DNA of 64,000 nt from Candidatus Omnitrophota bacterium (GTDB lineage: Bacteria; Omnitrophota; Gorgyraeia; Zapsychrales; Zapsychraceae), in contig JANQMA010000011.1 of NCBI GenBank assembly GCA_028280285.1, positions 58,520 to 122,519 on the forward strand, written 5' to 3'. The notes beneath the pieces were generated by a model, which saw only the letters and a program-made list of their open reading frames with translations, had not been told where the DNA came from and made no database searches. The position numbers and the translations under genes were made by a program. Below, piece after piece: positions 7,913-30,186 of the stretch (position 1 is its first letter; the number at the start of each line of letters is the position of its first letter).

Positions 7913-8845
7913 TCAAGTTAGAACAGCGTTTGTATTAACAATACTACTTAGTTTAAGAAATTTATCGCTTGCGTATGCATAAGCCACCTGCAATACGCGC
8001 AAGACACCATCACTTGTTGCGACATCACCATAATCATCATTTAATTCAATAATCATCCCCGGAGATTCATTACTTGTATAACCGGCTATCTCCGCCTGCC
8101 AAATAATAATTTTCTCGTCATTATAAAAAAAGAATGCCCCGGGATAAGGAAATGACAAAGCTCTAATCAAATTCCAATTCGCTTTGGCCGGCTCATTAAA
8201 ATTAAGCCGCCCATCTTCAGGCCGCCGGCGTTTTAAATAAGTTGCCTGAGTATGATCTTGTTTGATGCGCTTGTTGGTTCCATTAATAATGGCCTCTAAA
8301 TTATTTAAAATAATTTTCGGATATAGAGGTGTAATTTTTTCATTCAACGTTGTTGCGGTTTCATCGGGGGCGATATCAATGCTCATCTGATCGACGATAT
8401 CTCCTGCGTCAACGGCTTCATTGATATAGAACAATGTCACACCGGAGGTTTTTTCTTCATTAATAATCGCCCAATTCGTTGGAGCAAATCCGCGGTTTTT
8501 TGGCAGTAAAGAATCGTGCAAGACAAAAATCCCCTGCGCCGGAATTGCAAAACAATCGTTATTAATCAGATAACGCCAACCGACAACAAAGACAATATCA
8601 ACATCACATCGTTGTAAATAGTCACTGTAATCTTCGGGTTTAATTCTGTCCGAGGTTTCGCACAGAATATTGTTTTGTTCACACAAAGCTATAATATCTT
8701 CTGTTTTATTATTCAATTCGTGCGCCTCTTGTTTAAGAACAAACGCATGTGTGACAGCACAACCATCGTCAAGCAGTGCTTTTAAAACGACCAGCCCGCG
8801 TTCCCCGGCAAGAAACAATCCGATGTTTGACTGTTTATCACTCAC
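7913..8845 (-). CDS. Sugar N-formyltransferase (Fmt/ArnA-N-like formyltransferase family)
   Basis: 310 aa. Formyltransferase core HDSLLPKNRGFAPTNWAIIN and the folate-binding region. GTG start overlapping the upstream stop (GTGA). Confidence 0.7.
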   Translation of the reverse strand: MSDKQSNIGLFLAGERGLVVLKALLDDGCAVTHAFVLKQEAHELNNKTEDIIALCEQNNILCETSDRIKPEDYSDYLQRCDVDIVFVVGWRYLINNDCFAIPAQGIFVLHDSLLPKNRGFAPTNWAIINEEKTSGVTLFYINEAVDAGDIVDQMSIDIAPDETATTLNEKITPLYPKIILNNLEAIINGTNKRIKQDHTQATYLKRRRPEDGRLNFNEPAKANWNLIRALSFPYPGAFFFYNDEKIIIWQAEIAGYTSNESPGMIIELNDDYGDVATSDGVLRVLQVAYAYASDKFLKLSSIVNTNAVLT

Positions 8846-10128
8846 ACCATTAATTCCTTAAATAAATTTTTGTAATTTTCCGCATACTTTTCGGGCAGTA
8901 TTTTTTCCCGTGCCGCTTTAATATCAGTTTTGGCAACATCTTCTTCAAATTCAAACAAAGTCTGGTATAAGCCACGGCTGAAATCTTCCTCATCATAACA
9001 ATCAACAAGATAACCTGTTTGGGGTGATGTAATAAAATCCGGGGCTACGCCTCTGTTAAACGCGATCACACGGCTGCCGCACATAATCGCTTCATTGATC
9101 ACCATCGGTCCACAGTCATCTATAGAAGGACAGGCAAATATGTCACACGCCTGATAGGCCTTGACAATTTTACGGTTATCATCCAATAATCCTAAATTAA
9201 TCCACGGGCAACCGATTTGATCAGCGGCGAAACCATTGGCATTGCCAAACGTCACCAAGGCAAAGTTGTCTTTCTCCTCTGCAGAAAGTCTTTGCATAAG
9301 CAGTTTAAGCGCACCGAGAAGATGCTTGCCCCCTTTGCGTGGATCGTTTAGATTAAAACATCCATATAAAATAATTTTTTTATTGAGCGGAAGCCCTAAA
9401 TCTTCACGCGCTTGCGTTTTATCACCCATCATAAATTCTTTATCATTAATACCGATTAATATCTTCTCTATACGACGATTACGCGATAATAAACTTTTAT
9501 GACACTGCTCATGCGACCATGATGTGGGCGCGACAAAGGTGAGCGGGATATCAGCAAACATGCTCCGTTTTTCCTCCCAATGCTTCGCAATCACATCATT
9601 TCTTAATTGAACTCCGAGCTGTGGACACTCTTCACACTTTTCTTTAAACTTTTCACAGCCAGCATTAAAATGGCAACCACCCGTGAGTGGCTCAATATCC
9701 ATCGTTGTCCACACCATTGGTGTTTTAAAAACATCGTAGATCCGCCGGATAAGTCTTGCCGAAAGAAAATCCTGAACCGAATGCAAACAAATAATATCCG
9801 CGCCTTTTAGATAAGATCGCAACCGGTTAAAAGACACAGCCGGCAGATTAAAATTAATTAAAGTTTTAGGCTCGCATTTAAGCGTGTAATACTTGCGCCG
9901 CAACCTGTGGATCACCAGGTTGATATAATGCCAATGATATTTAAAGACATTTAAAACAGATTTAACCGGATGGCCTTTAACAAGCTCAACCACCTTCTCT
10001 ACTTTAGATTTTTTTCTATAAACAAGCATTTGGGAATCGCAACCGCAGGCATTAAGCGCCTGGTGAAGTGTCAAAACAGCACGGCCGGCCCCATCAAAAT
10101 CATTGTTTGTTAAATGGATTATTCGCAT
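8842..10128 (-). CDS. Glycosyltransferase family 1 (GT4-like, GT-B fold)
   Basis: 428 aa. N-terminal MRIIHLTNNDFDGAGRAV and a C-terminal nucleotide-sugar-binding half typical of GT1/GT4 retaining transferases. Confidence 0.7.
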   Translation of the reverse strand: MRIIHLTNNDFDGAGRAVLTLHQALNACGCDSQMLVYRKKSKVEKVVELVKGHPVKSVLNVFKYHWHYINLVIHRLRRKYYTLKCEPKTLINFNLPAVSFNRLRSYLKGADIICLHSVQDFLSARLIRRIYDVFKTPMVWTTMDIEPLTGGCHFNAGCEKFKEKCEECPQLGVQLRNDVIAKHWEEKRSMFADIPLTFVAPTSWSHEQCHKSLLSRNRRIEKILIGINDKEFMMGDKTQAREDLGLPLNKKIILYGCFNLNDPRKGGKHLLGALKLLMQRLSAEEKDNFALVTFGNANGFAADQIGCPWINLGLLDDNRKIVKAYQACDIFACPSIDDCGPMVINEAIMCGSRVIAFNRGVAPDFITSPQTGYLVDCYDEEDFSRGLYQTLFEFEEDVAKTDIKAAREKILPEKYAENYKNLFKELMV

Positions 10129-12038
10129 TTCACATGTACTGTATTATATTTCTCAGCATTCTTGAAAAAAGATTCATATTCCTCAGCACCGCCAGAACTA
10201 TATCTTTCCGGTGGTAAAATATAATCACCGGCCGGAGCTCTTAAAAAATTATCAATAATCTCAATCGCTTCATCCGCATTAGTATAACCTTGCAAATTTT
10301 TATCAAATGTTTTTAAAGCATTTGGCCGCACCCTTTGATCACCGATGCGATATAGACCCAATGTCGGGATTTTGGAAAAAATAGATTCAAAGTAAGCCGT
10401 ACTTGCTATATCACATATGACATAATCGGCTTTTACCAACCATTCCTTTAATTTTTTTTCAGAATACAGAATATTTTTTGCTTTAGAATCCTCGATAACT
10501 TGCCCCATATAATCAAATCCTTGCCCCTGATTAATCAATCCCTTCCAAACAAAATCAAACTGTGGATTGTTTTGAAAATACTGAATGAATTTTTTATGAA
10601 GACTTATGTACTCCATAGGAAAAGATTGACATAATTCTACAGGACGGCTTGGCCATAAAGCATCCATAACAGGCACAAATAAAACCATTTTATTTTTATT
10701 AGCTGTTTTTTGTTTACGCTTCTCTATAATTTCACCATAAGATTGTTGAAAGTAAGAATATGAATAAAATTTGGTCGAAACGCCAGGCCATTGCCGGGCC
10801 AAAGTTGTTTCATGTTCAGCCTCTTGATCGGTCATCGTATAATAATAATCAAAAATCTTCTCCAGAAACATAAGCCTCGATGGTGAATCAGACACATCAC
10901 ACCCATGGGAAAGTCCTATCTTTTTACATGTTGTTATCCTCCTCGCCGCATCCAAAGCCCCGAGCGCTTCAGGAGTATACAAAACATGTACAGCAACAGC
11001 ATTTATTTTGAATTGAGTGAGGATCTGCTCAAAAACCTTGGAACTCTTAATTATCTCTGGAACATAAAATAATAAACACTTTTTTAAACGCGACATTATT
11101 AAAGGTGTAACCTGCGCTCCTGCATGATCATCAATCCAATCCAAAATTTTCGCATCAGATAATTTTTGCTCAACAGAGGCCCATTGAGGAAGATTGAGCT
11201 TTTGACCGGCATTTAAAGCGTCAACATTTTCAACAATATCACCGGTTTCCGCGTTAATCATCTTTCGTCTACTCAACCAATACACACTAATATTTTTTTT
11301 AAGAAGGCTGCGCGTCATATCCAAAATATAAGGACTTTGGGTTAAGAATAATACACGCCCATCAAAATCTGAATTTTGTTTAGAAGCCGCATTGGTTTTT
11401 AATTGAAAATTTTGGAAAAACTCTGAAAAAGAAAATTTAAACGGAAGAGGTTTTAAAATTTTGTTAATACTCTCTTTAAATAAAACAAATTTTGATCTGT
11501 AGCCGTGAGCGTTATTTACTATTTTATTTATGACTTGGACTCTTTCAAATTCAATACCCAACTGCTTGGCCACGACGCCACAAACTCTCGAATATGTACT
11601 CTCCGCTCCTCGAAAGGCTAAAAAACAATCAAATTCATCATTTGCATACTTTTGACTACAAAAAATAATACGTGTGGGATTTGCCGTATTACAAAATTTT
11701 TTTAAAATTTTTGTCGTTAAAATAATATTATCAACCAAATATTTAAGATGATGAAAATACAGCGAGGCCACGTTCATTTCCAAACGCTTGGCTTCATCAA
11801 AAATATCTTGCACAACATAATCGAAATCACTTAACCATTTTAACTGTTCAGATAAATACGCCTTTGTGTCACCACGCATTTCTCCTGAAGAGTAGTAATC
11901 TTCTAAAGCCTCAAAATCAATTCCACATTGCTCTAAACAATAGTAAACCTGCTGATTTAGAGCGACAACCTTAAAAGAGCTCTTATCTTCCGGAAAAACA
12001 ATGTCTTTTGAAAAATCTTCTATTAAATAATAAATCAT
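10119..12038 (-). CDS. Large TagF-like (CDP-alcohol phosphotransferase / capsule-synthesis GT-B family) putative transferase
   Basis: 639 aa. C-terminal motif ADYVICDIASTAYFESIF resembles the TagF D-x-L-I-T-D-Y-S-S-x-x-F-D active-site motif. A paralogue lies at 31620..33527. Confidence 0.4.
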   Translation of the reverse strand: MIYYLIEDFSKDIVFPEDKSSFKVVALNQQVYYCLEQCGIDFEALEDYYSSGEMRGDTKAYLSEQLKWLSDFDYVVQDIFDEAKRLEMNVASLYFHHLKYLVDNIILTTKILKKFCNTANPTRIIFCSQKYANDEFDCFLAFRGAESTYSRVCGVVAKQLGIEFERVQVINKIVNNAHGYRSKFVLFKESINKILKPLPFKFSFSEFFQNFQLKTNAASKQNSDFDGRVLFLTQSPYILDMTRSLLKKNISVYWLSRRKMINAETGDIVENVDALNAGQKLNLPQWASVEQKLSDAKILDWIDDHAGAQVTPLIMSRLKKCLLFYVPEIIKSSKVFEQILTQFKINAVAVHVLYTPEALGALDAARRITTCKKIGLSHGCDVSDSPSRLMFLEKIFDYYYTMTDQEAEHETTLARQWPGVSTKFYSYSYFQQSYGEIIEKRKQKTANKNKMVLFVPVMDALWPSRPVELCQSFPMEYISLHKKFIQYFQNNPQFDFVWKGLINQGQGFDYMGQVIEDSKAKNILYSEKKLKEWLVKADYVICDIASTAYFESIFSKIPTLGLYRIGDQRVRPNALKTFDKNLQGYTNADEAIEIIDNFLRAPAGDYILPPERYSSGGAEEYESFFKNAEKYNTVHVKCE

Positions 12039-12077: not shown

Positions 12078-13067
12078 TTATACTCTAATAAAGCACTCCT
12101 GAGCATTCTGTTCGTATTGATCCACAAGCCGCTTCACAATATTTTTACCTTCCTCAGATGCTAAGCTGCTAATCACATCCCATTTTTTCTTCCTGTCCGC
12201 TTCATCGATGACACGCGGACATTTTTCCCGTTTCATAATACTCAAAGTATCTTTTGAAAATTTTGTGCCAATCACATCGGAGCAATGACCCAAAACCTTC
12301 TCTGTATCTTCAGCTAATTGTTCAAATATGATTGTCGTAATTTGGTTTTTATGACTTTTATCCAACGCATCATACGCTTTGTTATGCTGATCATCGATAT
12401 AATCAATCATAAAGATAATACGATCCATCGGTTCTAAACTCATAAACTTTTCAGCCCATGGAAGCGCATAATAGGGCACTACCCCCCATTCGGTTTGTAT
12501 CGTTGTTGCCCCCATACGAGGGCTTTCATAAACATCCTCTCCATAGTTTTTTGTATGCCAAGAATATATAATGTCAACAGGGTGGCGAATGATATTAAAC
12601 ATTTTTACTTTAGGAAAGGCTTTAAAATACGTTTGATTTTGCCATACGCCATTATGAATCATATAAACATTTATAGGATTAACATTTTTAATCCGTTCAT
12701 ACACCTCCACCCCTTCTTTGGTATATAATCGACGGACATACTCCTGAGGATCTCTATAGCTCCAGGCTCCTGTATAATCTCCGGGACGAAAATTAACATT
12801 GCGCCCTAAAAAACTATCATAAAGCGCTAAATTAACATGATACCGAGCAAGATATGCCGCTGACTCATGATCCATATACCCGATCGTACTCAGTATGGCC
12901 ACCTGCTCTAGAATTGCACTGTGCACAATGTTTTCTGCACGCTCTAAACTACATATTAATGGGCACAGAAGTGTTTTTCCTGATCTAGTAAAGCCGGTGA
13001 CAAAAACTAAATTATCGGAGACAATAGATTTAAATAATTTTTGTGAATTCACATATATTCCTTCCAC
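12078..13067 (-). CDS. PAPS-sulfotransferase-fold protein
   Basis: 329 aa. 5'-PSB loop FVTGFTRSGKT and 3'-PB motif RHPVDIIYSW match sulfotransferase nucleotide-binding signatures. GTG start. Confidence 0.65.
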   Translation of the reverse strand: MEGIYVNSQKLFKSIVSDNLVFVTGFTRSGKTLLCPLICSLERAENIVHSAILEQVAILSTIGYMDHESAAYLARYHVNLALYDSFLGRNVNFRPGDYTGAWSYRDPQEYVRRLYTKEGVEVYERIKNVNPINVYMIHNGVWQNQTYFKAFPKVKMFNIIRHPVDIIYSWHTKNYGEDVYESPRMGATTIQTEWGVVPYYALPWAEKFMSLEPMDRIIFMIDYIDDQHNKAYDALDKSHKNQITTIIFEQLAEDTEKVLGHCSDVIGTKFSKDTLSIMKREKCPRVIDEADRKKKWDVISSLASEEGKNIVKRLVDQYEQNAQECFIRV

Positions 13068-13076
13068 ATGCCCTCT

Positions 13077-13625
13077 TTATTTCTGTAATACTCCTTTTTG
13101 AGATAAAAATGCTTTAATTTTTTGAAGACTATCTTCAACAGACTCCTTATAAGGATGCACTATAACATCAGGAGTTCTAGGCCTCTCATATGGCAAATCC
13201 ACACCTAATAGTTGTGGGTTATCTTTCGGCATAGTTGTAGCGTAAACTTTTTTAGGATCATTGTTAATGCAATCAGCAATATCCGCATCTAAAAATATTT
13301 GTATATAATTTTCCCATTTCCGTCTTAAAAAATCTCTGACAATATATTGTCCGGCAATATTAGCCACAATGACATCTATTCCGTTTTTTGCAAGCAAGCT
13401 TGCAGCAAATGCAATATTTTTTGTTACGGCGAAACGTTCTTCTAAACCATATCCAAATTTCTGCTCATAAAAATCTCTTACAGTATCTCCATCAATTAAT
13501 TCTACAGGATGGCGGTCGCACTGCTGAAGTTCCTTTTTTAAAGCTAAACCTAATGTGGTCTTACCAGAACCTGATACGCCTGTTAACAAAATAATAAAAC
13601 CAGAACGCTCTTTAACTTTTAACAT
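13077..13625 (-). CDS. Adenylylsulfate (APS) kinase homologue; candidate CDP-phosphoramidate 3'-kinase (Cj1415-like)
   Basis: 182 aa. P-loop LLTGVSGSGKTTLG and CysC-like length. Confidence 0.8.
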   Translation of the reverse strand: MLKVKERSGFIILLTGVSGSGKTTLGLALKKELQQCDRHPVELIDGDTVRDFYEQKFGYGLEERFAVTKNIAFAASLLAKNGIDVIVANIAGQYIVRDFLRRKWENYIQIFLDADIADCINNDPKKVYATTMPKDNPQLLGVDLPYERPRTPDVIVHPYKESVEDSLQKIKAFLSQKGVLQK

Positions 13626-14579: not shown

Positions 14580-15872
14580 TTAAGTATAATTTTGTTTACC
14601 CTTTCCCGGAAAAATTTTTAATTTTAATAATCTAGGTACATGTAAAATGCGGACAAAAAATGCATAAACATAAGCTGCAATGGCTGTAAAACGTGGAGGA
14701 GCAATCATCGCCCGACGGGTTCCTGTATTCATAAGCGTTAAATAGAGTGTTATTTTCTCAACATCATCAAAATATTTTTTTTGATAATCATAATCAAAAA
14801 AAAATTTTTTATCTAATTGCGTCAAATCCAGCACAACATCCTTTGTAGATTCAATCAATTCAATCAGCGCTTTGGTTTCTTTCTTAATCAAATCAATTTC
14901 ATCATCCCGCAGCCACTTATTATATGATTGAAGGAGTCCTTTATTAACGCCCTGTTGTTTACCAGAATGGGAATTACCATGCCAATCAACGCCGCCTATT
15001 GTCGGATTAATTAAAGTGTCATCATAATCAATACCGACGCATTTAGATAACATCTGCATAGATTCAACAACATTTTTAACCAGGTAGTCATAACTCAAAA
15101 CAATAAACCTTTGATCACACCCGTATTTTTCCTGCAATAATACTAACCGGGTAACCGCCACCTTCCACGCGCGGATTAACGCCTTTAAATCATAATTGTT
15201 AAAACTCTTGATAAAATTATTAGGAAAAGGCGGATAGGAAAACCTCCGTGATCCATAATACCGTTTAACCAGTCGTGATTTTTCAGAAGCAATAAGGCCG
15301 AGTGGATTTCTGAGCGAATGCATAAAAACCGAACCGGAAAATTCTTGAAAAAAATCTTCAATATTGGTCAAATAAAGCCCCGCACTGGCATGCATCACCA
15401 CATACCCGGCCTCTTTACCGTGGGCCCCATTATCCCATGCCTCAAAATAGGCCTTATGCCGCGCGTCATAATACCCGGCGACAGAACCGGCATCTTTGGC
15501 ATAATCAACAACGAGATCTTTAAATTGATCAAAACTAAAATCGGTTTTAACCGCACCGTAATATTGCTTCTCTAAATAATTTTGCCTTACCCCGATTTTA
15601 TCACCCTGTTCTTTACCATATTTTAAAATGACATCCGGTTTTTCTTCAGGGATACCTAATAATGAAAATAACGATTCCTGATTAAAATCATCCCGTTTAG
15701 GAACCGTCATGGGTATTCCCAAATGATTTTCAAAACGCTTATAAAATTTATCAGAAAAAGGAAACCCTACTTCCACAGGATAACTGGCTATTTGTGGATG
15801 CCCATCAAATAAACGTGCTAACAAAGATCCGCCGCTCCTTTGCACACCCCCGATAAAAATGGTCTTATACAT
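14580..15872 (-). CDS. PAPS-sulfotransferase-fold protein
   Basis: ORF 14580..15890 starts at TTG. The in-frame ATG at 15872 gives MYKTIFIGGVQRSGGS (5'-PSB loop). A 3'-PB-like motif LRNPLGLIAS is present. It abuts the stop of the upstream cytidylyltransferase gene. Confidence 0.6.
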   Translation of the reverse strand: MYKTIFIGGVQRSGGSLLARLFDGHPQIASYPVEVGFPFSDKFYKRFENHLGIPMTVPKRDDFNQESLFSLLGIPEEKPDVILKYGKEQGDKIGVRQNYLEKQYYGAVKTDFSFDQFKDLVVDYAKDAGSVAGYYDARHKAYFEAWDNGAHGKEAGYVVMHASAGLYLTNIEDFFQEFSGSVFMHSLRNPLGLIASEKSRLVKRYYGSRRFSYPPFPNNFIKSFNNYDLKALIRAWKVAVTRLVLLQEKYGCDQRFIVLSYDYLVKNVVESMQMLSKCVGIDYDDTLINPTIGGVDWHGNSHSGKQQGVNKGLLQSYNKWLRDDEIDLIKKETKALIELIESTKDVVLDLTQLDKKFFFDYDYQKKYFDDVEKITLYLTLMNTGTRRAMIAPPRFTAIAAYVYAFFVRILHVPRLLKLKIFPGKGKQNYT

Positions 15873-15874
15873 GA

Positions 15875-16639
15875 TTATTCCCATCTCCAATCATGTATCC
15901 AGGGCGAATCACCAACAGCCACCAACTGTTGTTGATATAACTGCAAATCATTGACATTATCTGCTTCACACCAACGGCCATCAACACCGACCGTCTCAAT
16001 CCTTCCCTGAACCATCAAAACTTTATTTAATAATGCCGTCATATCTAATTTATCTAAATCCTCTGAAGACATTGTTTGAGTTATAGCATCAACACCCGCC
16101 CAACCTGCGGGAGTGAATTTTAGCAGTCCCATGTATTGGCCTTGAATATCGTCAACCGAACGCGGAGTCTGGCCAATTTCCGTCAACAGTCCATCATCAT
16201 CAACCTTGAACGTTTCCGCATCAGACAAAGGATCTTCAAAACGTAAACGCCACAACTTTTCCCATAAGCGGTCGTAGCTAATAACGATATCCCCCTTTGC
16301 CTGTTTAATACTTTCAATAATTTTAGGGTGATAAACTATATCCGCGTAGGAAACAATGCAGTCTTCATTCATTAAATAAGAACCGGCGCAAAACAAAGAT
16401 TGCACCATATTAGTCTGTTCCCATCTTTCGTTAACCAAAACCTCACAACCGCTGTCAACTAACATATCTTTACGGTATCCGCCAACGACAACCACGTCAT
16501 CCAACCCGGCATCCTTTAACGCGCTTATTTGCCAAGACAATAAACTTCGATCAACAAGCTTGGCTAAACACTTGGGCTTGTCTGCTGTTTCATCCCCCAT
16601 CCGGGATCCCCGTCCCGCCGCTAAAATAATGGCCTTCAT
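15875..16639 (-). CDS. Sugar/phospho-nucleotidyltransferase (candidate CTP:phosphoramidate cytidylyltransferase, Cj1416-like)
   Basis: Internal ATG gives MKAIILAAGRGSRMGDETADKPK. ATGA overlap with the upstream stop. ~254 aa. Confidence 0.75.
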   Translation of the reverse strand: MKAIILAAGRGSRMGDETADKPKCLAKLVDRSLLSWQISALKDAGLDDVVVVGGYRKDMLVDSGCEVLVNERWEQTNMVQSLFCAGSYLMNEDCIVSYADIVYHPKIIESIKQAKGDIVISYDRLWEKLWRLRFEDPLSDAETFKVDDDGLLTEIGQTPRSVDDIQGQYMGLLKFTPAGWAGVDAITQTMSSEDLDKLDMTALLNKVLMVQGRIETVGVDGRWCEADNVNDLQLYQQQLVAVGDSPWIHDWRWE

Positions 16640-19690: not shown

Positions 19691-20758
19691 TTACTTTAAG
19701 ATTTGCGCACTTTCTTCAATTAAACTCCATGTGAGTGGACAACCTCTTTGAATAGACTGCGTTGCCTTTTTTCCTAAAATATCTTTTAAATATTTTGGCG
19801 GTAATCCGTGACCGGGACGAATAGAACGCACATTCTCAGCATTAAACTCTTCGCCTTCCGCTATATCTTTGACGGCAAAAAGAGACCTGGAAAATACCCT
19901 GGATTTTTCACCCTCTTCGGTTAACCGAAACTCTTCTTCTCCCAGGCTTTTTTCAACCTCCCGCACCAATTTAACCATTTCTTTAAATTCCTCTGGCTGC
20001 ATGGAAAAAGCAGAATCCGGCCCTCCCATGCTTCTATCCAAAATAAAATGCTTTTCAATAATACAGGCTCCAAGAGCCACAGCACCGGCGGCCACAGATG
20101 AAGTGAGTGTATGATCGGACAATCCAATCTCCACGCCTAATCTTGATTGCAATGCTTTAATCGCATTAATATTCATCTCTTCCAACGGTGCCGGATACGT
20201 CGATGTACACTTAAGAACCGCAACCTGCTTATTGCCTACTTTGTAACAAGCCGCTAATGCCTCCTCCAAGTCTTCCCAAGTAGCCACACCAGACGACATT
20301 ATGATAGGCTTACCTTTTGAGGCCGTATACTCAATCAACGGAATATCATTGATTTCACATGAAGCAATTTTATATGCCGGTACTCCGGCTGACTCCAAAA
20401 AATCAACAGAAGAATTATCAAATACCGAGGAAAACCCGATCACACCGCAATCTTTCGCATACTCAATTAACTCTTTTTGCCACTCCCAGGGAGTATAGGC
20501 TTCCTTATATAAATCATATAATGTGCGGCCATCCCAAAGCGTACCGTGATTGAGTTTAAAATAATCGGTATCCGCGTCTATTGTGATGGTATCAGGCGTA
20601 TACGTTTGCAATTTAACCGCATCAGCACCGCTATCCGCCATTGCCTTAATCGTCTTCTTAGCCAACTCTTTGTCATGCAAATGATTAGCCGATAATTCAG
20701 CAATAATAAAAGCCGGATACCCCGCTCCAACACTTCTACCTTCTATGTCAAAACTCAT
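19691..20758 (-). CDS. NeuB-family nonulosonic acid synthase (N-acetylneuraminate/pseudaminate/legionaminate synthase type) with C-terminal SAF domain
   Basis: 355 aa. AELSANH, DAVKLQTY and SDHT motifs, plus a SAF-like C-terminus. Confidence 0.85.
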   Translation of the reverse strand: MSFDIEGRSVGAGYPAFIIAELSANHLHDKELAKKTIKAMADSGADAVKLQTYTPDTITIDADTDYFKLNHGTLWDGRTLYDLYKEAYTPWEWQKELIEYAKDCGVIGFSSVFDNSSVDFLESAGVPAYKIASCEINDIPLIEYTASKGKPIIMSSGVATWEDLEEALAACYKVGNKQVAVLKCTSTYPAPLEEMNINAIKALQSRLGVEIGLSDHTLTSSVAAGAVALGACIIEKHFILDRSMGGPDSAFSMQPEEFKEMVKLVREVEKSLGEEEFRLTEEGEKSRVFSRSLFAVKDIAEGEEFNAENVRSIRPGHGLPPKYLKDILGKKATQSIQRGCPLTWSLIEESAQILK

Positions 20759-21442
20759 TTAATTGTCCTTTAAAATAATTGGTAGAATTTTATCCAAAGC
20801 GTTAACAACGTAATCCGCCGGCACAGGATTTGCCTGGCTTTCCGGATAAAACATTCTCTGTCCATTTTGTTCTAATTGAATACTCATCATTCCCATTACT
20901 TTTGGTGCATGAAAATCTTTATAAGGGTTATCGCCGACATATGCGGCCACTTCAGCATCTATATCAAATTCATTTAAAATTTGCTCATAAGGCACCTGCG
21001 AAGGCTTGGCATTCTCTCCTTCTAATTCATCGGTATATACAATACTTTGCATGTGATCTTCTAAACCCAATACCTTTACTTTATTGCGCTGGACGCTCGC
21101 CATTCCGTCAGTAATCAACCCTATCATGCAACTCTTGTTATGCAATTCAGATAAAATTTCTTCGACGCCATCAAATAAATTGATATTTGGCAAATGTGTT
21201 CTATAGGCAGTTACCATCTTTTTTACAAAACGCTCTTGATCCAAATCATGTTGAGCGCATAACACATTAAATACCTTGCCGCGGCCGTTTTGCTCTACAA
21301 TAGAAACCAATTGATCAAATATGCGTTTGTCATCCAATCCACATTCTTTTGTTACAAATTTAGCAACAGCCCGAAAACCGCTTAAAACATAATCGTATTC
21401 GCGATACAATGTGTCGTCTAAATCAAATATAACAGCCTTCAC
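20759..21442 (-). CDS. HAD-superfamily hydrolase
   Basis: 227 aa. MKAVIFDLDDTLY (DxD HAD motif I). GTG start. Confidence 0.7.
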   Translation of the reverse strand: MKAVIFDLDDTLYREYDYVLSGFRAVAKFVTKECGLDDKRIFDQLVSIVEQNGRGKVFNVLCAQHDLDQERFVKKMVTAYRTHLPNINLFDGVEEILSELHNKSCMIGLITDGMASVQRNKVKVLGLEDHMQSIVYTDELEGENAKPSQVPYEQILNEFDIDAEVAAYVGDNPYKDFHAPKVMGMMSIQLEQNGQRMFYPESQANPVPADYVVNALDKILPIILKDN

Positions 21443-22425
21443 AAAACAGCACCCTCTACGACGGAATCACCTTCTATAAAAAAATCATCTGTATAACGCA
21501 GCATCACAACATCTTCTTTATATTGTGATAGATGACCATCAAGTTTTTGACCGGATAATAACTTAATTAAAAACCGGGGCGTATTAACTCCTGCGGCAAA
21601 TCCTAAAGACGCGCCACCGCCAAAACGCGGATTAATTTCTAAAATTTGGATTACTTCACCAACTTTAATACATTGAAATGTCGTATGCCCTATCAAACCT
21701 AACCGCCCGGCTAAGGCAGTCACCTCACTGACCATTTTTTCGTCCTTAACCGTCCGCCCTTTATAAGACTCCCCACTGACAACTTCGATACGCTCTCTTG
21801 GAACAGCAGAAACAACACGCCCTTCAAAATCCGCAAATACATCGATGGTATATTCCGTCCCCTCGATAAACTCCTGGATAACGGCATCGTCTATGTAGCT
21901 TGTAAAAAAATCGAGTTCTTTTTCATTGTTTACCTTAAAAATATTTTCCGATCCGCTACCAAATCTGGATTTAACAATATAGGGAAATTTTAAATCCACC
22001 CCCTGAAGGTCTTTAGATAAATATGTTACCGGAGCATTAAAGCCATTTTCTTTTAAGAAATGAAAAAATAAATGCTTATCATTACAAATATTAACGGCCT
22101 CCGGCGGGGAAACCATTACCTGAATATTCTCTTTTTCAAACAGGGATTTATTTTCAGAGAATATGATCAATTCAGCGTCACGCGTCGGCACAATAAGACT
22201 GATCTTTTCTTTTTTGCATATATCCAAAATGACCGGCAAAAAATCCTTATCGGATGAGCGCGGAACGAGATAATAACGGTCACCGGCAATAAACCCGGCA
22301 CTCAATGGATCAATATCGACCGTGATTACTGACCCGGTGTTTTTTTCTTGTTGTAATGCTCCTAAAAAAGCCTTAACCAGCCATACCTTACGCGAAACAC
22401 TCGTAATTAATACATTGACATCCAT
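21439..22425 (-). CDS. ATP-grasp domain ligase
   Basis: 328 aa. ATP-grasp pattern (KSRFGSGSENIFKV, EINPRFGGG). Confidence 0.6.
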   Translation of the reverse strand: MDVNVLITSVSRKVWLVKAFLGALQQEKNTGSVITVDIDPLSAGFIAGDRYYLVPRSSDKDFLPVILDICKKEKISLIVPTRDAELIIFSENKSLFEKENIQVMVSPPEAVNICNDKHLFFHFLKENGFNAPVTYLSKDLQGVDLKFPYIVKSRFGSGSENIFKVNNEKELDFFTSYIDDAVIQEFIEGTEYTIDVFADFEGRVVSAVPRERIEVVSGESYKGRTVKDEKMVSEVTALAGRLGLIGHTTFQCIKVGEVIQILEINPRFGGGASLGFAAGVNTPRFLIKLLSGQKLDGHLSQYKEDVVMLRYTDDFFIEGDSVVEGAVL

Positions 22426-23015
22426 TATTGTTCCTGCTCTTGTTGCAACATCTCTTTCACTCTATTTTTCGTGCGCACCCAATCTTCTTCTAAGAAATCA
22501 TGGACAAATGAATCACAAAACGCGCCATTAATCACCACATGATCTTTCATAACGCCTCCCTGCTTCATTCCAAACTCTTCCATCACACTTAAAGTAAAAT
22601 GACGTATAGCATATGTTTCACTGTGCAGCTTATGCAGTTTAAGCTCTTCAAATAAATACGTGCACATCATATAAAGAACACTGAGAAAATCTATTCGATA
22701 AACAGGCCGGTCCTGCCTCCTCTTGGGAGAAACCAGAAACGACAACTCTGCCCGTTTATGGTCATAATCTATATTGGTTAAACCACAGTAACCGATAAAT
22801 TCATCATTGTGATCCAGTAAAGAAAATATAACCTGATTCTGATCTTCCTGTATCTTTTTAAACCACCTGTCCTGATCTTCATCGGTCAGTGGTTGTTTTT
22901 GACGAAGAACATCGATTTGCGCGTTCCGCCATTCTTTGAGAGTAGACAAATACTCCCTTTTCATTGATGAAAGACTTCGTCCACAAATAGAATCTATTTT
23001 GCTTTCAACCAGCAT
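22425..23015 (-). CDS. GNAT-family N-acetyltransferase (PseH-like)
   Basis: 196 aa. Acetyl-CoA-binding-like segment IGYCGLTNIDYDHKRAELSFLV. Confidence 0.5.
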   Translation of the reverse strand: MLVESKIDSICGRSLSSMKREYLSTLKEWRNAQIDVLRQKQPLTDEDQDRWFKKIQEDQNQVIFSLLDHNDEFIGYCGLTNIDYDHKRAELSFLVSPKRRQDRPVYRIDFLSVLYMMCTYLFEELKLHKLHSETYAIRHFTLSVMEEFGMKQGGVMKDHVVINGAFCDSFVHDFLEEDWVRTKNRVKEMLQQEQEQ

Positions 23016-23050
23016 AGATTTAAAAAGTTTTGAATGTGTAAAATTAACAA

Positions 23051-23797
23051 TTAGGCCGCTATTTCTGCCGTGTTCGCAATTGTCTGCTGTTGTAGTTTAT
23101 CTAAATAATATTGTGCCAAAAAGAAATCATCCCAATTATCAATTTCAATTGAAAAATAATCATCTTTTTGTATGGTGGGCAAGACCTTCTCACCTAAAAA
23201 GACATGAGCTCTTCTAATCCCTCTTGTATCATAGAGATTTTGGGCTAGCACTGCTGCAACCGAACCATCCAACATATACCTGTCGGGAAATTCTTGTCGC
23301 CTAATAGCTTTAACATCTTTGACAAGAGGTTGTAAAAATCCTTGTTCATCAACCACTTTCATTAACTCAGGAGCTTGTGTAACGGGATGGCAAGTAACAG
23401 ACGCGTGCGCGTCGGAGTGGACGAGCTTTTCCACCACTTCATCAATCAATCCGTCTGCTCTAAAAGGAACATTCGCCTGCATCAAAACGACAATGTCCGT
23501 TTCATAATTTTCTTCCTTCTTTAAAGTCTCAACAACATGAAGCAAGGCCTCCTCAATAGGCGAATCATCTAAAGCCAACTCACTTGGGCGCATAATGATT
23601 TCAACATCATAGTGTTGACGCACGACATCCGCAATTTCTTCACTGTCGGTTGAAACAATAACTTTGTCTAAAGTTTTTGCTTTTTGTGCCGCTTCAATGG
23701 TATGTCCAATAACAGGCTTGCCACCTAAATCTAAGATGTTTTTTGATTTAACTCCCTTAGACCCACCACGCGCAGGTATAACACCAATAATATTCAT
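23051..23797 (-). CDS. Acylneuraminate cytidylyltransferase family (CMP-nonulosonic acid synthetase)
   Basis: 248 aa. MNIIGVIPARGGSKGVKSKN signature. Confidence 0.8.
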   Translation of the reverse strand: MNIIGVIPARGGSKGVKSKNILDLGGKPVIGHTIEAAQKAKTLDKVIVSTDSEEIADVVRQHYDVEIIMRPSELALDDSPIEEALLHVVETLKKEENYETDIVVLMQANVPFRADGLIDEVVEKLVHSDAHASVTCHPVTQAPELMKVVDEQGFLQPLVKDVKAIRRQEFPDRYMLDGSVAAVLAQNLYDTRGIRRAHVFLGEKVLPTIQKDDYFSIEIDNWDDFFLAQYYLDKLQQQTIANTAEIAA

Positions 23798-23809
23798 GCT
23801 TTCCTCTCT

Positions 23810-25543
23810 CTATAAATTCGCTGTAGATGCCCCCCGCACAGCTGTTTCTTTATCTTTTCTTCCCGGATGCCGTTTTGTGTTTTGAGCGCCCAACTCATTT
23901 ATCGCCCACCATGAAAGCTCAACAATCTCTTCATCAGGCAGATCGCTAAAGTTCGTCCTAACGGCGTCGCCTTGTTCGCCTAAACGTAGGAAATATTGTT
24001 CAACCATATCATCATCCGCCGGGGCCACAACGCCGGTGACCGCTTTGGTAATAAGTCCCTTTTCCATGGCCAAGTCCCAGAAACTTGTGCCAGGGTATGC
24101 TGTTACAAAAAAGAACACTTCAGGCTTAAGCCCGATTTCTTTACACACCTCAACCGTTTCGGCAACTGTCTGGCGTGTTTCGCCTGGAGAACCAATCATA
24201 AAGGAACAGTCCGCATACCCGAGAACCCTTTGTGTCTCCCGCACAGCAATTTTGATTTTTTCCTGTGTTTGCCCGGATTTATCAATGCTTTTTAAAATGG
24301 TTGGACTTGCCGTTTCAACACCATAACCTGCCTGACGCATTCCTACCTCACGCCCTAATTCCAGAATATTAGGCCGGCCCTGCTTTTTCGCACGGACGAC
24401 ATCATCCGCAATAATATTGGTCCTGCACGCGCCTCCCCAAGTCACATCAAGCCCTGTTTTTTTACGTTGATTCTTAAGGGCCTCACAAAATTCCATAGCC
24501 CAACGATAATCTGTAAAAAGAAGATCATCTAAGAAATGCATATACCCTGCATCGTATCTGTCATGCAGATATTGCATTTCATCAACAATTTCCTGAGGAG
24601 ATCTTAAACGATACGTTTTACCCAAGTAAGAGGCATAGCAATAATCACATGCCTTTGCCGCATACGGACAACCACGTGAAGCCAAAAGCTCCACCGAGTA
24701 GGTATCACACGTACTCTTTCCGTCACTCCACTTATTTTCCCAGTTTAAATGACCAAGAGGATTCTGTTTATAAATTTCATCAATAGCAAAACGTGAACGA
24801 AGCGGCCACGGCAGTGTATCAAGACCATCCCATCTTGTCTTAAAACCGGTACGCTCGCCATTATTTCTAATTTCCCACTCACCTTTTTTTATTTCATGTT
24901 TATAGACAACGCCGGCACATCCTTCCAGTGAAACACCTTCTTCTAAGCGATGCAAAAGTTCTGATGTTGTCATCTCTCCTTCTTTATTAACGGCGATATC
25001 AATGGGAAGCATTTTGACCATAAATTCCGGCATACAGGAAGAAATACCCCCACCAAGAACAATGGGTATTTCTGGAAATACTTTCTTACAGTAGGTAGTA
25101 ATCTGTTTAATGCGGGCGTACTGCGGTATAATCCCACCAATCATGATCACATCAGGATGATAATGATTAAATTTTTCATCAATTTTCGCCTCAACCCACT
25201 TTGACATCTCCTCCGGGGTTTTATCCATAGGCTCCTTACGCAAAGCATTCAAATCCAGTGTTTCGACATAGTGACCATCCATAGCCGCTACGGAACAGAC
25301 ATAAGCCTGGCCTAAAGGAAATATATTGGGGTAGGACCACTCACGGATCGGCGCATTGATCATAAGGACCTTAAGTCCTTTATTCCGTAGAGGAAAGAGA
25401 CCCTCAGAATCATCTGTTGTAATCCGCGGAGCTTCAGGGAACTCATTCCCGCCTAAGGCATTAAACCGCTGGTAAAAGCGCTCCGGCGCCTTAGGCACAT
25501 TGATATTAACGAACGCGTCATTTTCTTTGGTTTTTGTAGTCAT
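23810..25543 (-). CDS. Cobalamin(B12)-binding radical SAM enzyme (non-canonical Cys spacing)
   Basis: 577 aa. N-terminal B12-binding-like region (KVLMINAPIREWSYPNIFPLGQAYV). Cys cluster GCPYAAKACDYC (CX6CX2C). Confidence 0.7.
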   Translation of the reverse strand: MTTKTKENDAFVNINVPKAPERFYQRFNALGGNEFPEAPRITTDDSEGLFPLRNKGLKVLMINAPIREWSYPNIFPLGQAYVCSVAAMDGHYVETLDLNALRKEPMDKTPEEMSKWVEAKIDEKFNHYHPDVIMIGGIIPQYARIKQITTYCKKVFPEIPIVLGGGISSCMPEFMVKMLPIDIAVNKEGEMTTSELLHRLEEGVSLEGCAGVVYKHEIKKGEWEIRNNGERTGFKTRWDGLDTLPWPLRSRFAIDEIYKQNPLGHLNWENKWSDGKSTCDTYSVELLASRGCPYAAKACDYCYASYLGKTYRLRSPQEIVDEMQYLHDRYDAGYMHFLDDLLFTDYRWAMEFCEALKNQRKKTGLDVTWGGACRTNIIADDVVRAKKQGRPNILELGREVGMRQAGYGVETASPTILKSIDKSGQTQEKIKIAVRETQRVLGYADCSFMIGSPGETRQTVAETVEVCKEIGLKPEVFFFVTAYPGTSFWDLAMEKGLITKAVTGVVAPADDDMVEQYFLRLGEQGDAVRTNFSDLPDEEIVELSWWAINELGAQNTKRHPGRKDKETAVRGASTANL

Positions 25544-25725
25544 TTTGTCCCCCTTTTGCGGGTCTTTAATATGGCAATATTATTACAACTTATTGGCAAA
25601 TATACCAGTTTTTTCTTTAAAAAAAATTGACGTTCAATATTTGAACATTTTAAAAAATTGATCATGATTATTGTTCAATTTATGAACACGATCTACTGTC
25701 TAATTTTAAAAATACACCTACTTTT

Positions 25726-26928
25726 TTAAACAACCACCGCAATAACAGCATCGATAACGCGTTTAATTTCTTCTGCTTTCATAGAAGGAAACAATGGAAT
25801 GGTGAGCGCCGTATCATAATATTTTTCTGCTTCTGGGAAATCACCGCGCTTAAACCCGAACTTGTTTTGATAGTATGGCAATAAATGCAATGGAATATAA
25901 TGCACATGGACACCTATTTGCATTGCCCTGAGCTCTTCAAAGATTTCCCGGCGTGTCTTTTGTACTTTATCAAGATCAATTCTCAACATATACAGATGCC
26001 AGGCGCTTTGACGGTCAGCCTCCTGAAACGGCGTGATTAAAGCTTCAACCGGACTAAACGCTTCATTATATTGTTCGATAATTTCACGACGGCATTCATT
26101 AAACTTATCAAGTTTTCTTAGCTGGCTTAATCCCAGCGAACACTGAATATCGGTAATACGATAATTATAGCCAAGTTCTTGCATCTCATAATACCAGGGC
26201 GCACGATTAGCAAACCGCTTACCGCGATTAAAGGCGTTCTCATTATCAAAGGCCTGCTCTTCTAAAGTCATCGCATCATTGGCATTGGTGATGCCATGCG
26301 TGCGAAACAGCTTTAGCTTTTCATACAATGCTTCATCATTGGTTACAATCATACCGCCTTCCCCCATCGCGACATGCTTAACCGGATGAAACGAAAAAAT
26401 GGTCATATCAGCTAAAGACCCTACCGGTTTTCCCTTATAAGTAGCGCCGATGGCATGCGCGCCATCTTCAATCACAATCAAATTATGCTTCTTGGCAATA
26501 GCATTGATCTCATCCATATCACATGGCTGACCGGTGAAATCGACTGGAATGATCGCTTTCGTTTTTTCAGTAATAACCGCCTCTAACTTTTGAGGATCCA
26601 TACAATAGGTATCCGGACGGATATCACAGAACTTAACATCAGCCCCGAGAAACAACGCGCAATTACCACTCGCCGCAAACGTAATAGGAGCGGTGATGAT
26701 CTCATCGCCTGCTTTCACACCGGCGGCGTAACACGCGCAATGAAGCGCCGCCGTTCCGGTAGCAACGGCAACAGCGTATTTGGCTCCAACCTTTTCGGCC
26801 ACTGCCTTTTCAAACTCGGCAATTTTAGGACCCTGCGTTAACCAGTTACTTTTAAGTGTTTCGATGACAGCATTAATGTCGTCGTCATCGATCGTCTGTT
26901 TGCCGTAAGGAATAAAATCAGTGCTCAT
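25726..26928 (-). CDS. DegT/DnrJ/EryC1/StrS-family PLP-dependent aminotransferase (PseC/LegC-like)
   Basis: 400 aa. FSFHPVKHVAMGEGG PLP-lysine motif. Confidence 0.85.
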   Translation of the reverse strand: MSTDFIPYGKQTIDDDDINAVIETLKSNWLTQGPKIAEFEKAVAEKVGAKYAVAVATGTAALHCACYAAGVKAGDEIITAPITFAASGNCALFLGADVKFCDIRPDTYCMDPQKLEAVITEKTKAIIPVDFTGQPCDMDEINAIAKKHNLIVIEDGAHAIGATYKGKPVGSLADMTIFSFHPVKHVAMGEGGMIVTNDEALYEKLKLFRTHGITNANDAMTLEEQAFDNENAFNRGKRFANRAPWYYEMQELGYNYRITDIQCSLGLSQLRKLDKFNECRREIIEQYNEAFSPVEALITPFQEADRQSAWHLYMLRIDLDKVQKTRREIFEELRAMQIGVHVHYIPLHLLPYYQNKFGFKRGDFPEAEKYYDTALTIPLFPSMKAEEIKRVIDAVIAVVV

Positions 26929-26937
26929 AAAATTTTC

Positions 26938-28374
26938 CTATGAATATTTAAGCGCCTGCAGGGCGCGCACATTACTGAAATGAAGTGAATCCAAGTCCTC
27001 TGTGCTTTTGTTTTCAAATAACTCTTTAAATTCCTGAAGCGCTTCCACAACACTGTGTTTAGCCTTAAACCCAACTACTCTTTCTAACTTTTCGAAACTC
27101 ACCCGGTAATTGCGGGGATCGATCAGGTCACTGTTTCTGATAATTTCCGTTGCGGGAAACACTTGCTTAGTTAGCTCGGCCAGATCATTAATTGTGTGAT
27201 TCTGCGCGTCGCCGCCGACATTAAAAGTTTGCGCGCGCACATCATCGATCGGCGCGTTTAAAACCGCGTTAATCGCCCCGGCAACATCCTTCACATGCAC
27301 ATTGGGTCGCCATTGATTGCCCCCGCCATGCACCTCAATTTTTTTATTTTGATAAGCATTCTTCGCAAAAATATTAACCACTAAATCAAACCGTGGACGA
27401 TAAGACGGCCCGAACACAGTTGCCAAACGTAAAATCGTCGGGGCAAAAAGCGGATTCGGCAGATTACATACCGAAAGGATTGACTCTTCCACAAGCGATT
27501 TAATACGCGCATAAAGAGAAACCGGATTTAAAGCAGACTCTTCGGTTAAAAATTCATCCGGATTTTCGCTCGCGCCATAAACACTGCACGACGACATATA
27601 AACAAACCGGTTAATATTTAAATGTGAGCATAAATGCGCCATGGATGTCACGGCCAGATAGTTGGTCTTAAGCGCTGCCTGCGGGGCCTCCGCACAGGCT
27701 GGATCCCCAACGAGCTCGGCCAAATAAACAACAGCATCGACCCCATCAACCGCGCGGACAATATCATCAATATTAGCCGCGTCACCTTCCATCAGCTCAA
27801 ACCGGTTATTATCAATCCCTTTGAGTGAGTCACCATAATAAATAAATTTATCCAGCACACGCACCGACCAACCGTCATTAAGTAAGACACGCGCCAGCGT
27901 TGAACCAATGTAACCACCTCCACCGACAATCAAGACCGTACGATGATTAGTTGCCATCGGTTCTTGATCTTTAGAAACATAAACAGTCAATGAATCGAGA
28001 TTAATGAGCCCGACAACTTTCTTATCTTTTCTCACAACAGGAGCCATAGCATAACGGAAATAAATATCTCCATAAGCCGCTTTCATGTCCTCCAAGACCT
28101 GATTGACATCTTCTGTTTTTTTCAACTGCTCCTCTTCAATCAAAATCGGTTCATCATTCATAACACGCTTAAGCGTCGTACTTACCGGATGGCCTTGCAA
28201 AATAGCTCTGCGTAAATCCCCTGGAGAGGCCACACCCACCAAACAACCTTGATCATCCACAACGGTGACAATCATCCAATGTTTACCCTCAATATTCTTG
28301 AGCGCATCAAAAATAGTATCCGTTTGACGCAGCTCAATAGGAGGAATTAAGTTTAATTGACCGTTTTTCTTCAT
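26938..28374 (-). CDS. CBS-pair domain fused to NAD-dependent epimerase/dehydratase (SDR)
   Basis: 478 aa. N-terminal tandem CBS-like region, then VLIVGGGGYIGSTLARVL Rossmann motif and an SDR core. Confidence 0.65.
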   Translation of the reverse strand: MKKNGQLNLIPPIELRQTDTIFDALKNIEGKHWMIVTVVDDQGCLVGVASPGDLRRAILQGHPVSTTLKRVMNDEPILIEEEQLKKTEDVNQVLEDMKAAYGDIYFRYAMAPVVRKDKKVVGLINLDSLTVYVSKDQEPMATNHRTVLIVGGGGYIGSTLARVLLNDGWSVRVLDKFIYYGDSLKGIDNNRFELMEGDAANIDDIVRAVDGVDAVVYLAELVGDPACAEAPQAALKTNYLAVTSMAHLCSHLNINRFVYMSSCSVYGASENPDEFLTEESALNPVSLYARIKSLVEESILSVCNLPNPLFAPTILRLATVFGPSYRPRFDLVVNIFAKNAYQNKKIEVHGGGNQWRPNVHVKDVAGAINAVLNAPIDDVRAQTFNVGGDAQNHTINDLAELTKQVFPATEIIRNSDLIDPRNYRVSFEKLERVVGFKAKHSVVEALQEFKELFENKSTEDLDSLHFSNVRALQALKYS

Positions 28375-29690: not shown

Positions 29691-29698
29691 AACATCTC

Positions 29699-30181
29699 CT
29701 AGTTCTTTTTGATTAATAAATTGTCATATAGTTTACGGATAACCCCATCCCCGCCATTTTGGGGAACAATCACTTGCGCTATATCCAAAATTGTTTGGCT
29801 AGCATCTTGCGGCGCAACAGGATAACCGACAGCTTTCATCACTTCAAGATCATTAATGTCGTTACCGACATACAAAACATCATTAAGATCAACACCGCGT
29901 TCTTGGCAATATTTTGTAAGAACGCTTAATTTGTCTTCAACACCGTGAATCACATCAATGGCCAGCTTATTGGCACGGACCTTTACAACCGCATTGGTTT
30001 CTGTCGAAATGATGACTTGGGGTTTGTCCATCTTCTTAATCAGTGAAATCGCCAGTCCGTCACCACGATGACAAAAAACCGCCTCGGTGCCGTTCTGGTC
30101 AACCAAAACCCGGTTATCCGTTAACACACCGTCAAAATCGTAAACAATCAACTCTATTTTTTCTAAATCTAACTCTTTCAT
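29699..30181 (-). CDS. KdsC-like HAD phosphatase (ulosonic acid-phosphate phosphatase)
   Basis: 160 aa. IVYDFDGVLTDN motif I and overall KdsC/YrbI family pattern. Confidence 0.8.
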   Translation of the reverse strand: MKELDLEKIELIVYDFDGVLTDNRVLVDQNGTEAVFCHRGDGLAISLIKKMDKPQVIISTETNAVVKVRANKLAIDVIHGVEDKLSVLTKYCQERGVDLNDVLYVGNDINDLEVMKAVGYPVAPQDASQTILDIAQVIVPQNGGDGVIRKLYDNLLIKKN

Positions 30182-30186
30182 AACAA

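Follow-up and report, generated by a model that had tools for sequence, protein, structure and literature searches.

The window analysed here, a 64,000-nucleotide stretch of a Candidatus Omnitrophota genome (family Zapsychraceae; contig JANQMA010000011.1, positions 58,520 to 122,519), contains two genuine long open reading frames (ORFs), A and B, within a minus-strand ORF run at 223-35854. No better candidates are seen for the attachment of sialic-acid-like sugars to a surface glycan or, in the case of one of them, possibly of phosphoramidate. ORF A (10119..12038, minus strand; 639 aa) encodes a LIC12162-like (PF27859) candidate transferase of the GT-B type, from a clade tied to phosphoramidate and phosphonate modules; ORF B (31620..33527, minus strand; 635 aa) encodes a PFTS_polysacc (PF27878) GT-B transferase candidate homologous to TagF. 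Two ORFs of about 635 aa had been named in an earlier reading of the bare sequence (the original prediction), and both are present as described there. The start of B is probably the second ATG, at 33515, giving a protein of 631 aa, because a GAGGTG Shine-Dalgarno-like sequence lies upstream of it and a public 631-aa gene call has the same start.

The island and its two transferase candidates

Read along the minus strand, the island opens with genes for a winged-helix (HTH_24) protein and an ATP-binding cassette (ABC) exporter with fused transmembrane and nucleotide-binding domains (33475..35343), the 3' end of which overlaps the start of B. Immediately downstream of B is ulosonic-acid pathway 2 (28854..31639), which comprises a cytidine monophosphate (CMP)-sugar synthetase (30920-31639), a methyltransferase, a KdsC-like phosphatase, and a NeuB-like synthase of 278 aa without a SAF domain, and is the proposed donor supply for B. 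There follows nonulosonic-acid pathway 1 (19691..28374), the proposed donor supply for A: CBS-SDR, DegT, a B12-binding radical-SAM enzyme, CMP-synthetase (23051-23797), GNAT, ATP-grasp, HAD, and NeuB with a SAF domain. Next are a glutamine-kinase-like PRK05849 protein (17285-19684; NF004508, 915 bits against a cut-off of 501), a protein resembling the hydrolase of gamma-glutamyl cytidine diphosphate (CDP)-amidate (16636-17292; NF045546 as best NCBIfam match, 95.7 bits), a Cj1416-like nucleotidyltransferase (15875-16645; Pfam), a sulfotransferase-fold protein, Sulfo3 (14580..15890), a methyltransferase, and a kinase resembling adenosine 5'-phosphosulfate (APS) kinase (13077..13625), which could be an analogue of Cj1415 or else a genuine APS kinase. 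The other sulfotransferase-fold protein, Sulfo1 (12078..13067; Pfam Sulfotransfer_1), is encoded directly upstream of A, and A is followed by a GT1/GT4-type glycosyltransferase gene (GT1; 8842..10128; Pfam), the start of which overlaps the stop of A by 10 nt. Genes for a formylated 6-deoxy-amino sugar come last. All of these are on the minus strand.

Judged by its annotated genes, a Campylobacter-type phosphoramidate donor pathway is present at 13077-19684 of this 41% GC window. The inventory agrees with the original prediction in its two CMP-ulosonate synthetases, its single GT1, and the absence of a sialyltransferase match; the island also has two NeuB genes and a Cj1416-1418-like module, and no Capsule_synth or Maf match. 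That A and B are the only candidates for transferring the activated groups was too strong a claim, as Sulfo1 and Sulfo3 are rival candidates for phosphoramidate transfer.

Both proteins contain the motifs that had been likened to the active site of TagF-type enzymes, although in both cases these are sited within the final quarter of the protein and not at its end. The A motif (residues 537-554, ADYVICDIASTAYFESIF; 10377..10430, minus strand) would supply the loop and helix that bind the nucleotide in the C-terminal Rossmann domain, and its residues C542, D543, S546, T547, and E551 show no variation in 40 relatives. The B motif (residues 519-535, SDLVISFFTSSAGFEAI; 31923..31973, minus strand) includes the eponymous 'PFTS' motif, here FFTS (525-528), and is homologous to ISDCLITDYSSVMFDY of TagF. 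Phase variation of A or B was ruled out, as homopolymer tracts are absent: neither ORF has a run of at least seven G or C.

Family membership, fold, and kinship with TagF

Public proteins identical to A and B carry the precomputed Pfam annotations PF27859 'LIC12162' and PF27878 'PFTS_polysacc', respectively. The family names came from these annotations, since the local Pfam and NCBIfam libraries gave nothing useful for assigning either protein. Against local Pfam-A at E<=10, hmmscan returned no match of A or B to Glyphos_transf (PF04464), Capsule_synth (PF05159), or Maf/DUF115 (PF01973), the three profiles put forward for comparison in the original prediction, nor to any sialyltransferase. The idea that the proteins represent an unrecognised family did not hold: both sit in named families (PF27859/TIGR04331-like and PF27878/TIGR04417-like) that are already recognised, yet functionally uncharacterised. 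On sequence scores, A is a distant branch of the LIC12162 family and not a core member, because it scores 16.5 bits against TIGR04331 (cut-off 225) and its relatives match that model weakly (28 of 40; best 4.7e-11). For B, homologues comprise 219 representatives among 1.84 billion proteins; relatives of B are called 'PFTS motif protein' in public sources, and 42 of 60 aligned relatives match TIGR04417 'polysaccharide biosynthesis PFTS motif protein' (best 4e-162), a family defined by the PFTS motif where B has FFTS. NF046086, the BFO_1060 family of Tannerella, is matched by neither A nor B, and by three of the 60 B relatives (best 1.3e-6) and one of the 40 A relatives (8.3e-6), which indicates kinship at the level of a superfamily only. 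A PDB sequence search with both family profiles, a tblastn search of plasmids for A or B homologues, and a profile search of genome contigs with alignment A1 each gave no matches.

The original prediction had called A and B paralogous. Close paralogy is ruled out: BLASTP gives no significant match between them (best E 0.28), and phmmer with A found none of 150 B-family representatives. A distant link does emerge from profile comparison. With six A-family and 60 B-family sequences, hhalign gives a probability of 95.6% (E 1e-8), and with 40 A-family sequences 97.2% (E 4e-11 over 333 columns). The alignment spans A 221-601 and B 224-581, and leaves the N-terminal ~220 residues of the two proteins without any alignment at profile sensitivity. 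The A motif VICDIASTAYFE and the B motif fall in the same profile-profile columns, as do the LGLY and AIYY strands that follow them.

On their predicted structures, A and B both have the GT-B fold. The model of A gives a generic GT-B match. For the model of B (pLDDT 93.4) the best solved-structure matches are TagF and TarL, and two capsule polymerases that resemble TagF, Cps3D and Bcs3, are also among the best. The GT38 polysialyltransferase SiaD and the GT30 Kdo transferase WaaA rank under TagF and TarL, and have no sequence-family match. For a sequence-level comparison, TagF (437-678) and TarL (294-528) were taken from the PDB as a two-sequence profile. Against the B family (60 sequences), hhalign gives a probability of 95.1% (E 3e-8) over 182 columns, covering TagF 480-675; against the A family it gives 0.9%, which is below significance, with the same motifs placed in the same order. 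In the B alignment, GYPRND of TagF is placed at G400 of B, KKVIMYAPTWR at KKIICLCDAPMGR, VILLRMH584 at FLIYK473MK475 (R582 at K473 and H584 at K475), and the TagF motif ITDYSSvmFD at VSDLVISFFTSSAGFEAI (ISFFTSSagFE). Between VISFFTSSAGFE of B and LITDYSSVMFD of TagF the alignment requires a one-residue insertion, and the A motif aligns with ITDYSS of TagF only at low probability. By way of B, the profile alignment bears out the proposal that the C-terminal motif is a homologue of the TagF nucleotide-binding ITDYSSxxFD. 'TagF-like' is thus apt for A and B at the level of fold and superfamily, and not for family membership, given the missing PF04464 match.

The catalytic residues of TagF, H444 (WHG) and H584 (RMH), were located from wild-type and mutant PDB sequences. 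Neither is kept in the B family, in which no His is invariant or nearly so. The A family has W498-K499 at the position of H584, and its His378-Gly379 (10902..10907, minus strand), which follows a beta strand and is invariant in all 40 LIC12162-like sequences, may be a candidate counterpart of WH444G. We infer a CMP-binding or catalytic role for His378, Lys499, and Glu551 of A and for Lys473, Ser528-Ser529, and Glu533 of B. An equivalence of His481, found in the clade of A (clade I, below), with a TagF 'H548' was dropped, as the residue mutated in PDB entry 3L7M is H584, of the RMH motif. The title of that entry reads 'H548A' and the deposited change is at His584 (RMH to RMA), an apparent typing error in the title.

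Gene neighbourhoods of the two families

The context of the B family was taken from six distinct loci: the window and the metagenomic loci L007, L008/L009, L056, L057, and L058. A CTP_transf_3 gene lies within 8-10 kb in all six, and NeuB in five. The set next to B in the window (short NeuB, Hydrolase_3 phosphatase, methyltransferase, and CMP-synthetase) also occurs beside B relatives in L007, L056, and L057, and in L058 the PFTS gene comes straight after a complete set of the pseudaminic acid (Pse) type. Because L008/L009 and L056 have the same overlapping pair of ABC exporter and PFTS genes, the exporter and B seem to form a functional pair in the export or flipping of a glycan that contains ulosonate. 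Adjacency to genes of the Cj1415-1418 type is not a feature of B. Pathways that proceed through the 9-phosphates of ketodeoxynononic acid (Kdn) or N-acetylneuraminic acid (Kdn-9-P or Neu5Ac-9-P) likewise pair a NeuB-type synthase with a phosphatase. By this analogy, pathway 2 looks to be of the Kdn-9-P type rather than a route to Pse or legionaminic acid (Leg), and the donor of B is probably a Kdn-like acid.

For the A family, a metagenome scan gave 45 loci, which were annotated by phmmer with the proteins of the window. The family splits cleanly into two clades, in both of which the HG, WKG, and CDxPSTxxxE motifs are invariant; an attempt to tell CMP-sugar transfer from phosphotransfer by these conserved motifs was dropped, as they are identical in the two. 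Clade I is monophyletic and comprises 13 sequences (the window and 12 loci of 30-52% GC), which share a median identity of 35% with one another and 25% with the remaining sequences. Its members usually have the full glutamine-kinase cassette upstream and GT1 downstream; GT1 adjoins the clade-I gene in L001, L004, L011-L013, L016, L018, L019, and L024, and homologues of the phosphoramidate cassette are found in L001, L012, L013, L019, and L024 (30-52% GC). In the second clade (27 sequences) Sulfo1 is never present, and of the 14 loci that reach 9 kb or more, 11 have NeuB, CMP-synthetase, or DegT near the A-like gene, often right beside it. A LIC12162-family gene of Herbaspirillum is likewise placed after neuABC and before GT1 (PMC6679464). 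A contig profile search with the glutamine-kinase alignment gave a single locus from a metagenome-assembled genome, L010, which is without the cassette.

Sulfo1 adjoins the A-like gene in L012, L013, L015, L016, and L019, and its motifs resembling the 5'-PSB (SGKT) and 3'-PB (R-x-P-x-D-x3-S) are kept in eight homologues. The kinases of these clusters are of several types, and the type found in the window always adjoins Sulfo1. In L015 (1470-3719) and L024 (5553-7745), a fusion protein of 730-750 aa that joins a pyruvate-kinase barrel, PUA_2, and ATP sulfurylase is encoded between Sulfo3 and the APS-kinase-like gene; in L013 and L019, the pyruvate-kinase barrel alone is at that position. The fusions imply genuine synthesis of 3'-phosphoadenosine 5'-phosphosulfate (PAPS), and hence sulfation, in some clusters. 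In L016 (21-9955) a phosphonate pathway replaces the glutamine-kinase cassette upstream of the A-like gene. It comprises a fusion of cytidylyltransferase with phosphoenolpyruvate (PEP) mutase, a thiamine-pyrophosphate (TPP)-type phosphonopyruvate decarboxylase, AsnB, and aldehyde dehydrogenase, and is followed by nucleotidyltransferase, APS-kinase-like kinase, methyltransferase, PhyH, Sulfo1, the A-like gene, and GT1. The phosphoramidate pathway, or in L016 the phosphonate pathway, is always accompanied by two kinds of protein, one with the sulfotransferase fold and one that is LIC12162-like and of clade I, and one or other of these is very likely the enzyme that places P-N or P-C groups on glycans.

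Where the flank of the cassette can be seen (window and L012), it has NeuB just upstream, and synteny of a PIG-L gene suggests the same for L013 and L019. The whole architecture recurs in a distant lineage of 47-52% GC, with the ABC-PFTS pair, two NeuB/CMP-synthetase sets, the cassette, Sulfo, the A-like gene, and GT1, and the NeuB fragment of L009 shares 81% identity with the NeuB at the head of L012. Each island therefore combines two ulosonate pathways with exactly one PFTS gene and one LIC12162-like gene. Taken together, the neighbourhoods tie both families strongly to CMP-activated ulosonic acids, and the clade of A to the phosphoramidate module.

Further genes were noted in and around these islands. 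Asparagine-synthase-like amidotransferases are encoded downstream of the A-like and GT1 genes in L012 (17642-21256), L013 (19019-20869), and L019 (16952-20712), with heparinase II/III-like proteins after them in L012 and L019. Two B12-binding radical-SAM enzymes are encoded within the island of the window (4780-6732 and 23810-25543, minus strand) and are probably C-methyltransferases acting on sugar or nonulosonate precursors; the one at 4780-6732 has very highly conserved counterparts in L001, L013, and L018 (E about 1e-200). At the island edge, a divergently transcribed gene (36114-37697, plus strand) encodes a PMT_2 membrane glycosyltransferase (GT-C, ArnT/PMT-like) that may transfer the finished glycan or sugar to its final acceptor in the periplasm. 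No flagellar genes were seen near the island.

Donors of A and B

We regard B as most likely a CMP-ulosonic-acid transferase, because all six B-family loci carry a gene for a CMP-ulosonate synthetase. It would move the ulosonic acid that the four genes downstream of it produce, seemingly KDN-like and possibly O-methylated, from its CMP ester onto the growing glycan, and the overlapping ABC exporter would handle the glycan that carries this acid. In the explanation that fits best, A and B are both CMP-ulosonate transferases that parted long ago within one GT-B superfamily related to TagF, which would comprise the LIC12162-like, PFTS, and Tannerella BFO_1060 types, while a sulfotransferase-like protein adds the phosphoramidate; we give this combined reading an even chance. 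Members of the superfamily would take a donor activated by a cytidine nucleotide and release CMP. A would transfer the second nonulosonic acid, of the Leg/Pse type, made by 19691-28374, in concert with the GT1 to which it is translationally coupled, and phosphoramidate from 15875-19684 would be added by a sulfotransferase-fold protein beside the APS-kinase-like gene. We infer both the identities of the donors and the transfer of phosphoramidate by sulfotransferase-like proteins. For A, nonulosonate transfer is slightly ahead, at a little under an even chance, of transfer of phosphoramidate or phosphonate, which we hold to be possible but doubtful.

Two known systems give comparisons for these assignments. 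In Tannerella forsythia, the O-glycan is left without Pse or Leg when Tanf_01245 or TFUB4_00887 is knocked out; these are TagB-like GT-B proteins encoded beside CMP-Pse or CMP-Leg genes, for which DXD, D/E-D/E-G, and HP motifs are reported (PMC5420450). The Tannerella BFO_1060 type resembles A and B in the logic of its gene neighbourhood, and a few A and B relatives match its model NF046086 at ~1e-6, but it is about 445 aa long as opposed to about 635 aa for A and B. In Campylobacter, seven genes suffice to make and transfer O-methyl-phosphoramidate (MeOPN). Cj1421 and Cj1422 are site-specific MeOPN transferases that are phase-variable via poly-G tracts (PMC3907429). By description only, these transferases resemble A in having ~600 aa and in being encoded beside genes of the Cj1415-1418 type (PMC3907429), as A has PRK05849, amidate-hydrolase-like, nucleotidyltransferase, and APS-kinase-like genes within 8 kb upstream; by the same descriptions they differ in their poly-G tracts and variable C-terminus, where A is without a tract and has conserved C-terminal motifs. 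No information on the fold or domains of Cj1421 and Cj1422 was found in the literature.

Two explanations would take one or both proteins out of CMP-ulosonate transfer altogether. That one or both are true TagF-type polymerases, building a poly(alditol-phosphate) or sugar-phosphate chain from CDP-alditol, would accord with the rank of TagF, TarL, Cps3D, and Bcs3 among the structural matches of B, with the significant profile match of the B family to TagF/TarL, and with the ABC exporter adjoining B. B and the TagF/TarL enzymes have collinear conserved motifs, and a cytidine-nucleotide donor with CMP as leaving group is expected in both cases; A and B differ in an extra N-terminal region of ~200 residues and in neighbourhoods that encode CMP-ulosonic acids and not CDP-alditols. 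NeuB and CMP-synthetase genes dominate those neighbourhoods, and no gene of the TagD/TarI/TarJ type for making CDP-glycerol or CDP-ribitol was seen among the island ORFs scanned. The B family, moreover, is without the conserved His on which TagF depends (H444 and H584), and PF04464 is matched by neither A nor B and by only one of 60 B relatives (E 0.003). We therefore consider a polymerase very improbable. It is somewhat less remote, though still unlikely, that A, B, or both are ordinary glycosyltransferases using UDP-, GDP-, or dTDP-sugars, or non-catalytic GT-B-like scaffolds, that happen to lie in ulosonic-acid clusters; against this, polar residues of the expected donor site are invariant family-wide, the link to CMP-synthetase is consistent across many GC contents, and B is closest to enzymes that use CDP or CMP.

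The more serious alternative concerns A. Here A and the rest of its clade would be phosphotransferases in the style of TagF, and A a functional analogue of Cj1421 and Cj1422: an acceptor hydroxyl activated by His378 would attack the terminal phosphorus of a CDP-amidate (in L016-type clusters, a CMP-phosphonate), CMP would leave, and the Sulfo proteins would carry out PAPS-dependent sulfation. Clade I, deep and taxonomically widespread, would have switched from CMP-ulosonate transfer to installing phosphoramidate or phosphonate on glycans. We rate this proposal as tentative, and several observations speak for it and against ulosonate transfer by A. Clade I is deep and monophyletic, and in all eight loci with upstream flank its members are immediately downstream of P-modification genes (Sulfo1, kinase, or nucleotidyltransferase) and never directly beside NeuB. 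The association holds for two chemistries, the glutamine-kinase phosphoramidate module (window, L001, L012, L013, L019, and L024) and the PEP-mutase/cytidylyltransferase phosphonate module of L016, where no ulosonate gene is found across 17 kb; transferases for CMP-phosphonates are still unidentified beyond LicD-like proposals (PMC6697681). Clade I departs from the NeuB-linked clade at many conserved polar positions, with R388, H409, H481, D509, and W533 where that clade has W, Y, Q, N, and H. The invariant His-Gly after a beta strand recalls WH444G of TagF, the TagF-like chemistry has CMP as leaving group, and A is close in size to the ~600-aa MeOPN transferases. ATP sulfurylase beside Sulfo3, kinase, and Sulfo1 in L015 and L024 suggests ordinary sulfation by the sulfotransferase-like proteins, in which case no candidate for phosphoramidate transfer other than A would remain; L024 has the cassette and is without Sulfo1, and L001 is without any other unassigned transferase. 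It also counts against the combined reading that the sole experimental anchor for either family is the distant Tannerella family, and that B itself reached no NCBIfam threshold and had no match to TIGR04417.

Other observations favour nonulosonate transfer by A over phosphotransfer. The A family as a whole is strongly linked to NeuB and CMP-synthetase genes, the superfamily takes in the Tannerella Pse and Leg transferases, which are validated by genetics, and the recurrent island architecture has one PFTS gene and one LIC12162-like gene for two NeuB/CMP-synthetase sets. Adjacency by itself says little where an entire cluster is kept as one unit: GT1, radical-SAM, SDR, and DegT genes are conserved together with A, so that the association may reflect a single type of glycan, and NeuB stands just upstream of the cassette in the window and L012 and, by PIG-L synteny, in L013 and L019. 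His-Gly, WKG, and CDxPSTxxxE are equally invariant in the NeuB-linked clade, and a Lys occupies the position of TagF H584. The invariant Glu551 is where GT-B enzymes usually bind free ribose hydroxyls, and would fit poorly with a 3'-phosphorylated donor. The MeOPN transferases of Campylobacter have a conserved N-terminus and a variable C-terminus (PMC3417588), whereas the hallmark motifs of the A family are C-terminal; A is also without a phase-variable G tract. Sulfo1, for its part, could be the phosphoramidate transferase, using a PAPS-like 3'-phospho-CDP-amidate donor, or could be a true sulfotransferase. Its 5'-PSB- and 3'-PB-type motifs would suit a 3'-phosphorylated, PAPS-like phosphoramidate donor, and the product of Cj1415 was reportedly described as a PAPS analogue by Taylor and Raushel in 2018. 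The proposal that the two proteins are nonulosonic-acid or phospho-group transferases is thus partly supported, in that both families are linked to CMP-ulosonate genes and the clade of A to the phosphoramidate module, and fails in its reference to an unrecognised family.

The transferases for bacterial nonulosonic acids (Pse, Leg, and Kdn) are poorly known (PMC5420450). Through A and B, two large named families can be given a fold, a tie to TagF by homology, putative residues of the active site, and a consistent genomic rationale as CMP-ulosonate transferases, and a Campylobacter-type phosphoramidate pathway is seen in unrelated environmental lineages. The step that attaches P-N or P-C groups to glycans is biochemically undefined even in Campylobacter, and settling the donor of A would define a currently missing enzyme class. 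If clade I does carry out phosphotransfer, it would be the missing phosphonyl or phosphoramidyl tailoring transferase outside Campylobacter, and decoration of the O-methyl-phosphoramidate type would be widespread in environmental bacteria.

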